From Candidatus Saccharimonadota bacterium (GTDB taxonomy: Bacteria > Patescibacteriota > Saccharimonadia > Saccharimonadales > Saccharimonadaceae), in assembly GCA_017406405.1 (NCBI GenBank), contig JAFQYO010000011.1, positions 35,435 through 99,434 on the forward strand: a stretch of 64,000 bases of DNA, in the 5' to 3' direction. Both the position numbers and the translations under genes were made by a program. Below, one piece after another: positions 8,895 through 17,644 of the stretch. Numbering within the stretch: position 1 is the stretch's first letter; each line of letters begins with the position of its first letter. The notes below the pieces were generated by a model. That model ran no database searches and had not been told where the DNA came from. It saw only the letters and a program-made list of their open reading frames with translations.

Positions 8895-8981
8895 TGGTGG
8901 GCGAGGAGGGAATCGAACCCTCACTCTCTTGCGAGAACTAGATTTTGAGTCTGGCGCGTCTACCAATTCCGCCACTCGCCC
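8895..8981 (-). tRNA. tRNA-Leu(CAA)
   Basis: Reverse complement GGGCGAGTGGCGGAATTGGTAGACGCG...CT-CAA-AA...long variable arm...GGTTCGATTCCC...CACCA with encoded CCA; upstream TTGAAA-N17-TAAAAT at 8992-9020. Confidence 0.97.
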
Positions 8982-13808: not shown

Positions 13809-15320
13809 ATGACAACATTATCTGATTATCGAAACGAACGTTTAAGAAAACTCGACGAAATAAAATCCCTCGGAATAAATCCCTACCCCGCGAAATCCCG
13901 TCGCGACACAAAAATCTCCGACGTCGTCGAAAAATTCGATTCCTTAAACGGAAAGACCGCGACCGTTGCCGGCCGTATCGTCGCAATTCGTTCCTTCGGT
14001 AAACTCGCCTTCATAAAAATCCGCGACAATTCCGGCGAAGTTCAGATTTTCATGCAGTCTGAAGAACCCTCTAAATCCTCCGAAAAACTGTTCAATACAA
14101 AACGCCTAAAGCTCCTTGATTCTGGCGATTTTATCGAAGCGACCGGTCTCGTCGGAAAATCCTCAACTGGAGAAATCTCTATCTTCTCAAACGCCGTCCG
14201 TCTGCTCGGAAAAGCTCTTCGTCCTCTCCCTGGTCGCGACGGTTTTTCGAACAAAGAAGAACGCTATCGCCGTCGTTACGTCGATATGAACGTAAACCCG
14301 GAAGTCCGCGAACGTCTTATTCGCCGCTCTAAATTCTGGCAAGCGACTCGCGATTTTATGAACTCTCACGGTTTCGTCGAAATAAACACCCCCGTTCTCG
14401 AACACACGACCGGCGGCGCCGACGCGACCCCGTTCGAGACGCATATGTCTGCTCTTGACGAAGATTTTTACCTCCGCATTTCTCACGAACTCCCCTTAAA
14501 ACGCCTTCTCGGCGGCGGTTTCGAAAAAGTCTATGATATCGGCCCCCGTTTCCGAAACGAAGGCGTCGATGACGAACACCTCCCGGAGCATATCGCGTTC
14601 GAGGCATACTCCGCGTACGAAGATTACGAAGACGGTATGAATCTTTACGAAGAAATGATAAAACATGTCGCAAAAGAAACCTGGGGGGCCTTAAAATTCA
14701 ACGTCTCCGGTTTCGAAATCGACCTCGGAAACGGCGGAAAGCCCTGGCCAAGAATAAAATACGCTGACCTCCTAAAAGAAAAATACAACATCGACGTCTT
14801 TAACCCCGACCGCGAAGAACTGAAGCGTATCCTCCTCGAAGAATTCAAAAAGTCCGAGGATAAAAACGACCGCTCCGCAAAGAAATCTCTCGACCATACC
14901 CTCGAAACCGCCTCGACTGAACGCCTTATTGACCATGTCTGGAAACTAATCAGAAAAACCTCCGCCGGGCCTTTCTGGCTAATTGAAGAACCTCTTTCGC
15001 TCTCACCTCTCGCAAAAGTTGTCGAAGAAAACCCGCTCGTGACTCAACGTTTCCACCCCATCATCGCCGGAACAGAAATGGGGAACGGCTATTCCGAGCT
15101 TAATGACCCCCTCGACCAACTCGCCCGTTTTAAAGAACAACAAGCCCTCCGCGACGCAGGCGATTCCGAAGCCCAAATGCTCGACCTCGATTTCGTCGAG
15201 ATGCTTGAATACGGAATGCCTCCCGCTTGCGGCTGGGGAAATAGTGAACGGAATTTTTGGATTCTTGAAGGCGTCTCAGGGCGCGAAGCCGTCCCCTTCC
15301 CAATCATCAAATCCCGCTAG
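13809..15320 (+). CDS. lysS: Lysine--tRNA ligase (class II)
   Basis: OB domain, YRRRYVD, GGADATPF, FRNEG, YGMPP. Confidence 0.98.
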   Translation: MTTLSDYRNERLRKLDEIKSLGINPYPAKSRRDTKISDVVEKFDSLNGKTATVAGRIVAIRSFGKLAFIKIRDNSGEVQIFMQSEEPSKSSEKLFNTKRLKLLDSGDFIEATGLVGKSSTGEISIFSNAVRLLGKALRPLPGRDGFSNKEERYRRRYVDMNVNPEVRERLIRRSKFWQATRDFMNSHGFVEINTPVLEHTTGGADATPFETHMSALDEDFYLRISHELPLKRLLGGGFEKVYDIGPRFRNEGVDDEHLPEHIAFEAYSAYEDYEDGMNLYEEMIKHVAKETWGALKFNVSGFEIDLGNGGKPWPRIKYADLLKEKYNIDVFNPDREELKRILLEEFKKSEDKNDRSAKKSLDHTLETASTERLIDHVWKLIRKTSAGPFWLIEEPLSLSPLAKVVEENPLVTQRFHPIIAGTEMGNGYSELNDPLDQLARFKEQQALRDAGDSEAQMLDLDFVEMLEYGMPPACGWGNSERNFWILEGVSGREAVPFPIIKSR

Positions 15321-15327
15321 TCCTCCA

Positions 15328-15539
15328 CCCGCGACTTCGGCCTCCTCAGCGCTCCATTATCATATGTGAGGAGTGGCCTCTATTACTGGTATTCTGCAGA
15401 GCCTAGCCATCGAGACTCAAATAGTCGCTATTGGACACTTCGCTCTCTTGATACCACAAGCTCAAACACTTCATATTCCCTCTCTTCACGCTTAGCTCCT
15501 CAGTACTACGGTTATCGTGGAGGAGGATTTGCGACGCTC
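15328..15539 (+). other. Cassette U1 (divergent), CLec/FISUMP-like C-terminal fragment without start codon
   Basis: RDFGLLSAPLSYVRSGLYYWYSAEPSHRDSNSRYWTLRS...PQYYGYRGGGFATL; stop-free. Confidence 0.8.
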
Positions 15540-15541
15540 TT

Positions 15542-15753
15542 CCCGCGACTTCGGCCTCCTCAGCGCCCCATTATCGTATGTGAGGAGTGGCAACTACAGC
15601 TGGAGTACCACAAACCTTAATAATAGAAGTTCACGCGGCTACTGCTGGTCATCTCGCTCCGACAACACTGAACACTCCAGCTATCTAACCTTCAACCCAT
15701 CGAACCTACTTCCTCGTTACAATGACTTTCGCGGACTCGGGTTTGCGGTGCGT
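15542..15753 (+). other. Cassette U2 (divergent)
   Basis: RDFGLLSAPLSYVRSGNYSWSTTNLNNRSSRGYCWSSRS...YLTFNPSNLLPRYNDFRGLGFAVR. Confidence 0.85.
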
Positions 15754-15754
15754 T

Positions 15755-15966
15755 CCCGCGACTTCGGCCTTCTCAGCTCCCCATTATCGTATGTGAGAAG
15801 CGGCTACTACGACTGGTACTCTACGGGGCTTAGCTATAGAGGTTCGTACGGCTGCTATTGGTCGCTTCGTTCCGCCAATACTACGGCCTCCTACTACCTG
15901 CGCTTCAACTCATCGTACTTGTACCCTCAGTACGGCGACCGTCGCGGAAACGGGTTTGCGGTGCGC
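15755..15966 (+). other. Cassette U3 (intact VR-like)
   Basis: RDFGLLSSPLSYVRSGYYDWYSTGLSYRGSYGCYWSLRSANTTASYYLRFNSSYLYPQYGDRRGNGFAVR. Confidence 0.9.
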
Positions 15967-16022
15967 AAAAAACTCCTCACCTCCCCAAACCCTCAGCCGT
16001 CTCAACTCTCAAACTCCCTCCA

Positions 16023-16234
16023 CCCGCGACTTCGGCCTCCTCAGCGCCCCATTATCGTATGTGGGGAGTGGCACCTACCACTGGGGCTCTACGGGGCTTA
16101 ACAGCAGAGGTTCGAACGGCTACTATTGGTCGCTTCGTTCCTACAGTAGTACGTACTCTGACTTCCTGAACTTCAACTCGTCGGCCTTCTACCCTCAGGG
16201 CAGCAACAATCGTGGCTACGGGTTTGCGGTGCGA
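16023..16234 (+). other. Cassette U4 (intact VR-like)
   Basis: RDFGLLSAPLSYVGSGTYHWGSTGLNSRGSNGYYWSLRSYSSTYSDFLNFNSSAFYPQGSNNRGYGFAVR. Confidence 0.9.
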
Positions 16235-16245
16235 CACAAGAACCA

Positions 16246-16457
16246 CCCGCGACTACGGCCTTCTTAGCGCCCCATTATCGTATATGAGAAGCGGCGATTA
16301 TAATCAGTCATCTGCAACACCTAGCTATAGAAGTTCACATGGCTATTATTGGACATCTCGTTCTCGTGATGTTGCATATCCATATAATTTAACCTTGCAT
16401 ACGTCATACTTAATTCCTCAGAGTTACAACTATTGCGGAACCGGCTTTGCGGTGTAT
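16246..16457 (+). other. Cassette U5 (divergent)
   Basis: RDYGLLSAPLSYMRSGDYNQSSATPSYRSSHGYYWTSRS...PQSYNYCGTGFAVY. Confidence 0.8.
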
Positions 16458-16458
16458 T

Positions 16459-16670
16459 CCCGCGACTTCGGCCTTCTCAGCTCCCCATTATCGTATGTGA
16501 GGAGTGGAGATTATGCCTGGGACTCTACGGGGCTTGTCAACAGAGGTTCGCGCGGCTACTATTGGTCGCTTCGTTCCGGCAATGCTACGAGCTCCAACGG
16601 CCTGTACTTCTACTCATCAGCCTTGGGCCCTCAGTATAGCAGCGATCGCGGCTACGGGTTTGCGGTGCAT
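16459..16670 (+). other. Cassette U6 (intact VR-like)
   Basis: RDFGLLSSPLSYVRSGDYAWDSTGLVNRGSRGYYWSLRSGNATSSNGLYFYSSALGPQYSSDRGYGFAVH. Confidence 0.9.
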
Positions 16671-16732
16671 AAAATCTCAAAGCCTAAACCTCCCTTTACA
16701 TTTCGCTTAAGCTTATATATAATATATTATAT

Positions 16733-17644
16733 ATGTCAAACAAAGTTATGATTGTTGGAACCGGGAACGTTGGCGCCTCTGTTGCCTTCTCGCTTATAAA
16801 TCAGCGGACCGCCGTAAACGAACTTGTCCTTGTCGACATCGACACGAACGACGCCGAAGGCGAAGCTATGGATCTTCGCGATGCTCTCGCTGTCGCTCCG
16901 AGCTTTTTAAAAATCAAAGCCGGAAGCTATAAAGACGCGAAGTCGTGCGACATTATCGTCATCACCGCCGGCACAAACCAAAAACCTGGCGAAACCCGCC
17001 TCAATTTATTAAAGAAAAACTCTGCGATTTTCCGCCCAATGATAAAAGGAATCATGCGAAACGGCTTTCATGGTATTTTTCTCGTCGTCACAAACCCGAT
17101 GGACGTTTTGACTTTCCTAACCTGGAAATATTCCGGTCTCCCTTCTGACCATATTCTCGGCTCCGGAACCGTCCTCGATTCCGCTCGCCTCCGTCTCCGT
17201 CTTTCCGAAAAACTAAACTTAAACCCGAAATCGATTCACGCTTTCCAAATCGCCGAACATGGCGACTCCGAATTTGCGCTCTGGTCCTCAGCAAACGTCT
17301 CTGGTGCCCCGATTTCTAGCTTCCTCTCAAAACCTGCTCTCGCCGAAATTGAAGATTACGCCCGAAACGAAGCTTACGAAATTATAAACAAAAAGGGCGC
17401 GACCTATTATGGAATCGGCGTCTGCGTAGCCCATATCATCCAAGCCGTTCTGAACGACGAACGTCGCATCCTTTCCGTTTCCTCTTATGACGACTGTGCC
17501 GGAGTTTTTGCCGGCTTCCCAACCGTCGTCGGTCGTCGCGGCGCGATTAAACGCCTCGACCTCGAATTGTCCGAAGAAGAAGGAATAAAATACCAAAAAT
17601 CCATAAACGCCTTGAAATCCGCCATAAAATCCGTTCGTTCGTGA
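16733..17644 (+). CDS. ldh: L-lactate dehydrogenase
   Basis: VGTGNVG, ITAG..QKPGETRLNL, TNPMD, GSGTVLDSARL, EHGDS, KGATYYGIG. Confidence 0.92.
   Translation: MSNKVMIVGTGNVGASVAFSLINQRTAVNELVLVDIDTNDAEGEAMDLRDALAVAPSFLKIKAGSYKDAKSCDIIVITAGTNQKPGETRLNLLKKNSAIFRPMIKGIMRNGFHGIFLVVTNPMDVLTFLTWKYSGLPSDHILGSGTVLDSARLRLRLSEKLNLNPKSIHAFQIAEHGDSEFALWSSANVSGAPISSFLSKPALAEIEDYARNEAYEIINKKGATYYGIGVCVAHIIQAVLNDERRILSVSSYDDCAGVFAGFPTVVGRRGAIKRLDLELSEEEGIKYQKSINALKSAIKSVRS

Follow-up and report, generated by a model that had tools for sequence, protein, structure and literature searches.

A probable array of 5'-truncated copies of a diversity-generating retroelement target gene between lysS and ldh in a Candidatus Saccharimonadota bacterium

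Organization of the lysS-ldh interval

The stretch of DNA analysed here, called the window below, comprises 64,000 nucleotides from a Candidatus Saccharimonadota bacterium (assembly GCA_017406405.1, contig JAFQYO010000011.1) and corresponds to positions 35435-99434 of contig C8 in a 20-contig metagenome assembly of 697,629 bases, estimated to be 97% complete. This source genome is designated G000, and C4, C9, C14, C16 and C17 are other contigs of the same genome; coordinates given without a contig name are those of the window. The window carries, at 15328-16667, six units in head-to-tail order (U1 to U6) that are homologous to the template repeat of a diversity-generating retroelement (DGR). 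They lie between the genes coding for a lysyl-tRNA synthetase (lysS) and an L-lactate dehydrogenase (ldh), with spacings of 214, 213, 268, 223 and 213 nt.

Each unit is composed of a 47-nt header, a 162-nt body and an ending, GGGTTTGCGGTG, which represents the first 12-13 nt of the 3' homology. The header corresponds to the target-gene sequence immediately 5' of the variable repeat, and its translation ends in ...RDFGLLSAPLSYVRSG. In brief, the units, all on the forward strand, include: U1 (15328-15536, body 15375-15536), which is strongly diverged and free of stop codons; U2 (15542-15750, body 15589-15750), which is diverged, shifted by +1 relative to U1 and fused in frame with U3; U3 (15755-15963, header 15755-15801, body 15802-15963), an adenine-mutagenised copy of the template; U4 (16023-16231, body 16070-16231), also adenine-mutagenised and alone in its frame; U5 (16246-16454, body 16293-16454), the most diverged unit of the window, free of stop codons and fused in frame with U6; and U6 (16459-16667, body 16506-16667), again adenine-mutagenised. 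U1, U2 and U5 are much older copies than U3, U4 and U6. U1 to U6 are not working genes: they have no start codon, lack the N-terminal half of the C-type-lectin-like (FISUMP) domain and are spread over three reading frames.

Both neighbouring genes were taken from the list of open reading frames (ORFs). The lysS gene (13809-15320, forward strand), whose orthologues in five relatives are 75-85% identical, ends with a TAG stop codon 7 nt before U1, and U1 shares its frame. On the other side, the ldh gene (16733-17644, forward strand) is the right-hand neighbour and is preceded, 3' of the array, by a promoter-like site (16695-16723, forward strand) matching 11 of 12 consensus positions. This is the only strong promoter-like site of the lysS-ldh interval, in which no terminator-like site was found. 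No identical Ldh that would point to strain variants is on record, and neither the linkers nor the headers have an exact match in the metagenome or genome collections.

With the lysS frame taken as 0, U1 is in frame 0, U2-U3 in frame +1 and U4 in frame +2, and U5-U6 are back in frame 0, so that the frame shifts by +1 at each of its three breaks in the window. The 59-nt gap between U3 and U4 (15964-16022, forward strand) contains a run of six adenines (15967-15972) and sets U4 in frame +1 relative to U3; with one A fewer in this run, the two units would be joined in frame via a Ser/Pro/Thr-rich linker. This linker has a paralogue in the array on C14 (C14:26755-26860), which likewise contains the A6 run and shifts the frame by +1. 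Over all arrays of the genome, linker lengths modulo 3 equal 0, 1 and 2 at 7, 9 and 3 junctions, respectively, and some linkers contain stop codons. A single long repeat protein read through programmed frameshifts was rejected, because these lengths are inconsistent and because of the stops. The two arrays that have the same orientation as the gene upstream of them both start in the frame of that gene, 7-10 nt past its stop codon (15318-15335, where U1 follows the TAG of lysS, and C8:32868-32885, where a unit follows the TAA of an EF-Ts-like gene); the chance of both is about 1 in 9.

Template repeat and adenine-specific differences

A search of the genome with U3 returned 30 homologous stretches on C4, C8, C14 and C17, namely one template repeat and 29 units. 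The template repeat (C4:946-1119) has AAC or AAT where the other aligned members vary, bears no header and contains 56 adenines in 174 nt. When all ordered pairs of stretches were tested, taking C4:946-1119 as the template left 0-9 mismatches at non-adenine (non-A) sites, and taking any other unit left at least 10. Comparisons with the template were made over two lengths, the 162-nt body (53 adenines) and the 174-nt homology (56 adenines), and mismatches are given below as template-adenine sites/non-A sites.

A preliminary description of the array, made from the sequence of the window, had proposed that U3, U4 and U6 were diversified by the AAC/AAT to NNC/NNT mutagenesis of DGRs and had reconstructed a missing template from them. 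Its codon tally was reproduced: among 54 columns, 24 are identical, 22 are hypervariable and 8 show a single-base difference. All 66 codons of the hypervariable columns end in C or T, with a constant third base in 19 of the 22 columns, and these columns correspond to the 21 AAY codons of the real template and to its ACC codon. The reconstructed template exists in the same genome, where C4:958-1119, compared codon by codon, agrees with it at 159 of 162 bases (98%) and where each of the four ambiguity codes includes the true base. The reconstruction was wrong at codon 27 (ACC, predicted AAT) and at codon 40 (TTA, predicted TTG), the A-to-G/C change at the latter being itself an adenine change. 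A near-perfect AAY-rich match had been expected beside a reverse transcriptase (RT) gene; the match was found, but not in that position. Mismatches had likewise been expected almost exclusively at template adenines; they are concentrated there in U3, U4 and U6, but 2-6 non-A differences per unit are found as well. The proposed mutagenesis of these three units is supported, since a template, mismatches at adenine sites and an RT of the DGR clade are all present.

Over the body, the mismatches amount to 25/2 in U3, 22/4 in U4 and 28/6 in U6, the first figure being the number of the 53 template adenines that are changed, and the bias towards adenines is strong in each case (Fisher p = 1.3e-12, 3.3e-9 and 1.8e-11, respectively). 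In the bodies of U1, U2 and U5, this bias is slight or absent (30/33, 21/27 and 24/40; p = 0.002, 0.07 and 0.31). Over the 174-nt homology, the counts become 25/4 (U3), 23/4 (U4), 28/6 (U6), 30/33 (U1), 21/27 (U2) and 24/43 (U5). The differences are confined, or nearly confined, to template adenines in the four cleanest copies of the genome: C4:103-353 (20/0), C8:28-278 (19/0), C14:97345-97583 (16/0) and the start-less orphan C17:22217-22467 (22/1). Across 21 well-preserved units, 49 of the 56 template-adenine sites are variable, the states being A (62%), G (20%), T (13%) and C (6%).

U3, U4 and U6 are thus supported as DGR products that do not match the present allele of the template, because each of them carries 2-6 non-A differences, whereas the four cleanest copies have 0 or 1. 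Furthermore, a T is present at template position 93 in 23 of the 29 units, including these three, and a C in the template and in the four cleanest copies. Since a single homing event from the present template would restore C93, the most recent rewriting of the window units presumably used a template allele that was older or has been lost. The template lies about 600 nt 3' of the variable repeat located at the start of C4, and is followed by a convergent gene coding for a methyltransferase-like protein. In the same region, C4:574-752 constitutes a second template scaffold, which shares the 84-nt upstream element and the 3' flank of the real template but has lost the repeat body, and which may be a remnant of the lost template allele behind the T93 units.

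Reverse transcriptase and partner open reading frame

The genome contains a single match to RVT_1, a 372-aa ORF (C14:38072-39190; E=1e-12). Its best match among solved structures is the RT (bRT) of Bordetella phage BPP-1 (8ub7, E=9e-23), in which IGSLTSQ and YMDD align with IGNLSSQ and YVDD of this ORF, and it also matches a PHROG reverse-transcriptase family (E=4e-75). The two motifs diagnostic of the DGR clade, I/LGxxxSQ in motif 4 and YxDD, are therefore both present in the protein. A 264-aa ORF (C14:37277-38071) ends where the RT begins and keeps this position in relatives, with 24-64% identity; it is a candidate for a non-Avd accessory protein, as judged from its sequence and position.

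The RT is located in the middle of C14, at least 38 kb from either end, and is not adjacent to the template, which is on C4; DGRs usually have the two side by side, without this being a strict part of their definition. In the closest relative, G066, whose RT is 74% identical and has the same neighbours, the template (C2:66873-67079) is also off the contig of the RT; in the relatives G046 and G080, the template adjoins the RT. The system is a DGR, both by the clade of its RT and by the adenine-only differences between template and repeats, and all its parts are found in one genome: the RT and the template, a single full-length target, and orphan units that form a graded series. It departs from the DGR norm in its remote template, its Avd-unlike partner ORF, its 28 start-less fragments and the failure of the window units to qualify as target genes.

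Target gene and live copies

The body of the target gene is present once in the genome (C9:35965-38826), where its 954 codons run up to the contig end and the encoded protein has a hydrophobic segment in its N-terminal part. C9, the end of C8 and the start of C16 terminate in the last 40-44 codons of this body, the start of C4, the start of C8 and the end of C14 lie in the repeat, and these contig ends overlap by 115-125 identical bases. As only C9 has the full body, at most one of the three perfect repeats belongs to a full-length gene, and at least two perfect adenine-only repeats therefore sit on truncated genes. At most one of the 29 copies is thus part of a full-length surface-protein gene; the other 28 have no start codon and lack the N-terminal half of the lectin-like domain. 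DGR target genes carry the variable repeat at the end of an intact ORF with a complete lectin-like or Ig-like domain, which is not the case of U3, U4 and U6.

The live copy at C4:2-349 matches the FISUMP family (TIGR02145, Fib_succ_major) weakly, below the cut-off (E=4e-7), and the intact orthologue of G080 passes this cut-off (54.3 bits for a threshold of 41.65 bits; profile positions 44-175). One unit spans positions ~122-175 of the 176 positions of the profile, that is, about the last third to half of the domain. The live copies and the template have a 76-nt 3' flank in common, which is followed at C4:404-431 by a hairpin with a 10-bp stem.

Headers and multiplication of the units

The eight adenines of the header are invariant over 28 units, apart from one A/T site, which argues that the units multiplied as DNA and that only the part homologous to the template was written via the RT. 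For the same reason, an origin of the units by RT copying of the target mRNA was rejected for the header. The header has no recognisable counterpart in the template, of which the upstream flank resembles a diverged copy of the header. It is ~90% identical between units, including those whose bodies have diverged by 28-36% at non-A sites. Units of different arrays have long 5' parts in common in different linker contexts, and these common 5' runs are longer than the 3' runs. The diverged units share only some derived states and do not form a single group, so that a second family behind U1, U2 and U5 was rejected.

An inverted repeat, CTCCTCA...(18 nt)...TGAGGAG, is present at 15774-15805 and in every header, and spans the start of the homology to the template. 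Over the aligned headers, 99.5% of its cells are paired, and one compensatory change from C-G to T-A occurs in six units. A structured RNA or DNA hairpin was considered and not retained, as single-sequence folding gave z-scores of about 0 relative to shuffled sequences and the compensatory change may be one inherited event. No dedicated invertase was found near the arrays: the genome encodes two tyrosine recombinases, neither of which is beside an array.

Origin of the array

Very probably, each of the six units of the array is a 5'-truncated copy that derives from the 3' end of the single target gene of this DGR, with U3, U4 and U6 having been written by the DGR and all six being fragments and not genes. 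The truncation and the adenine pattern are read directly from the DNA, as are the template, the RT and the recurrence of such units in the genus; the retrohoming steps, the date of the last event and the way in which the fragments multiplied are modelled on the known DGR mechanism. Under this mechanism, RNA of the template repeat (C4:946-1119) would be copied by the RT (C14:38072-39190), which has a conserved 264-aa partner ORF. The RT would misread template adenines, and the resulting cDNA would replace homologous DNA. Because only template adenines would be misread, AAY codons would become NNY and never a stop codon. The header would be copied as DNA and not through the RT, and the last rewriting of U3, U4 and U6 would date back to an older or lost allele of the template.

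Several observations weigh against this origin. The window units retain only 12-13 nt of the 76-nt 3' flank and, judging from this, may lack a complete homing signal. The 264-aa ORF gave no sequence match in Pfam, NCBIfam, PHROGs or PDB, and no similarity to Avd could be detected. The RT (C14) and the template (C4) are on separate contigs of a metagenome-assembled genome, in which the linkage of C4, C8, C9, C14 and C16 within one cell is based on binning, on the identical overlaps of contig ends and on the shared repeat family, with units on the same contigs. Finally, pure decay of the fragments leaves both the absence of stop codons and the mostly synonymous nature of the non-A changes unaccounted for. 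Indeed, no stop codon occurs in 29 x 54 codons and all indels within units are multiples of 3. The non-A differences from the template comprise 234 synonymous and 105 non-synonymous changes, where 143 and 196 are expected under the observed mutation spectrum, and none of 2000 simulations attained the observed synonymous count. The joint probability of finding no stop codon is ~1e-9 for all units, if these are independent, and ~1e-6 for the seven most diverged units alone. Three accounts of the open frames may be considered: the units may be reset again and again by homing, which restores an open frame; some of the divergence may have arisen on a selected template lineage, the orphans being fossils of old template states, with which the many derived states common among orphans are consistent; or selection may act on the cassettes themselves, as in silent-cassette systems.

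The last of these accounts leads to an explanation in which the arrays would serve as an active reserve of silent cassettes ('functional pseudogenes'), written by the DGR, kept open by selection and exchanged with the expressed gene by a RecA-type process via the header and GGGTTTGCGGTG. The 29 start-less units, with their conserved ends, variable core, uninterrupted frames and indels in multiples of 3, have the organization of such cassettes, a recA gene is present in the genome, and the synonymous excess at non-A sites, the low joint probability of finding no stop codon, the conservation of the header despite body divergence and the long 5' parts common to arrays with different linkers all agree with it. 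However, the cleanest repeats carry 0, 0, 0 and 1 non-A mismatches, so that no transfer into a live copy is visible and no cassette-specific non-A variant is found in them, while the synonymous bias and the absence of stops could instead record the evolution of the template lineage, and homing alone resets units to an open frame. We consider this explanation unlikely, and give a similarly low probability to the broader proposal of a two-tier surface variation, in which the DGR writes variants and a start-less archive, kept by selection, recombines with the single expressed adhesin-like gene. It is doubtful, although slightly less so, that U3, U4 and U6, which are not genes, nevertheless remain live targets that the DGR currently rewrites at their present location. 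Start-less orphans with a near-perfect adenine-only pattern do exist, both here (C17:22217-22467, 22/1) and in G046 (C41:7458-7685, 26/0; C38:6903-7130, 30/0; C34:1587-1814, 27/1), at least two of the three perfect contig-end copies must be on truncated gene bodies, and some pairs of units are alike in their 5' part and differ at adenine sites in their 3' part, as expected from the polarity of partial homing. Such pairs are nevertheless equally explicable by recombination between units; moreover, U3, U4 and U6 have 4-6 non-A mismatches per 174 nt, including C93T, which one homing event from the present template could erase, and their 3' homology ends after 12-13 nt.

Two other possibilities are far less probable than these. 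That the array would be a row of alternative templates of a multi-template DGR, and not products, could be suggested by the body-deleted second scaffold at C4:574-752, beside the real template; it is, however, highly improbable, as the ordered-pair test leaves only C4:946-1119 as a template and as the units are without the 76-nt 3' flank and poor in adenines exactly where a template must be rich in them. An alternative-template array was therefore rejected on the basis of the all-pairs test. An artefact of the assembly, or an ordinary repeat protein that is rich in Tyr, Ser and Asn and has no link to a retroelement, might be considered in a 20-contig metagenome assembly of which three contigs break inside the repeat family. 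This is scarcely credible in view of the unique flanks (lysS and ldh), the distinct linkers and the very different ages of the units, of the unit-like matches in 93 of 101 genomes of the genus, with units of G046 at the same lysS-ldh site on the other strand, and of the existence of both the template and the RT.

Comparison with known systems

Compared with the canonical DGR of BPP-1 (mtd-VR, avd, TR and brt, where VR and TR stand for variable and template repeat), the present system is alike in its adenine-specific transfer from template to repeat, its AAY-rich template, its RT with an I/LGxxxSQ motif, the C-terminal position of the variable repeat in a lectin-like domain and the 3' homology extending beyond the repeat. 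It differs in that the template is remote from the RT, the 264-aa partner ORF does not resemble Avd in sequence, an identical 76-nt 3' flank follows both the template and the live repeat, with no visible difference between IMH and IMH* (initiation of mutagenic homing elements) within it, and 29 copies of the repeat exist, at most one of them in a full-length gene. In BPP-1, passages of one study describe the sequence 5' of the variable repeat as dispensable for homing, the target as working in either orientation, and the 3' signal plus hairpin as sufficient for homing (PMC3240598). Because these two elements suffice in the experiments described there, the known mechanism does not appear to require that the target be a gene.

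Other DGRs are known to have several targets: in Treponema denticola, TvpA and seven non-adjacent targets, and in Stenotrophomonas, eight tandem targets (Wu et al. 2018, PMC5758913). DGRs of the candidate phyla radiation (CPR) tend to have one target, and the surveyed maxima are 8 tandem or 7 non-adjacent targets per element (PMC5758913). As in the Treponema denticola and Stenotrophomonas systems, one template serves many scattered copies here; their targets are described as genes, whereas 28 start-less fragments, in arrays and in arbitrary frames, are found here. Orphan arrays are not reported in the published DGR surveys that were compared, in which multiple repeats occur only inside genes.

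Surveys that require an ORF or proximity to an RT would miss such fragments, which represent ~1% of a 0.7-Mb genome, as start-less DGR-written pieces of one surface-protein gene, and a larger share in relatives. The blind reconstruction of the template from three products, at 98%, implies that orphan repeats can locate remote DGR parts in fragmented assemblies.

DGRs of CPR/Patescibacteria reportedly occur in episymbiotic hosts with small genomes and have a lectin-like target; the present system has the same kind of host and of target. Antigenic variation from silent cassettes is known from the functional pseudogenes of Anaplasma msp2, pilS/pilE of Neisseria, vls of Borrelia and MgPar of Mycoplasma genitalium. 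The units resemble these systems in being start-less, stop-free and truncated cassettes with conserved flanks and a variable core, in a small genome with one expressed copy; they differ from them in that no transfer into the expressed copy is seen and that the diversity of the cassettes comes from the RT and not from point mutation. If the fragments are only by-products, they would provide a dated fossil record of past states of the template and of the repeats. If selection keeps them, as the absence of stops and the synonymous bias suggest, they would form a layer of cassettes on top of hypermutation in episymbionts that depend on attachment to a host cell, and under the two-tier proposal the arrays would preserve binding-site variants as a heritable memory instead of being litter.

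Occurrence in the genus

Of 101 sampled genomes of the genus, 68 encode an RT of this family and 93 contain unit-like matches, which almost always fall within open frames of 50-250 aa. From 20 to 59 or more copies are present in at least nine genomes, and the RT-bearing relatives include several from goat gut. G046 has 29 units, two of which lie between lysS and ldh on the opposite strand, one of them with 26/0 mismatches to the template. G066 has 57 units, only three of which differ from its template by 3 or fewer non-A mismatches. The lysS-ldh gap varies between genomes: besides the two units of G046, it measures 42 nt in G074 and contains unrelated small genes in G049 and G080; in G066, a contig break is located 27 nt past lysS.

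The region C7:16860-26748 of G066 contains ~25 units in 10 kb, in alternating orientation, with many tail-to-tail pairs whose 3' ends are 13-54 nt apart; these pairs would form large palindromes centred just beyond the homing signal. In the window itself, a tRNA gene (8898-8981, reverse strand) is the sole Rfam match at the gathering threshold.

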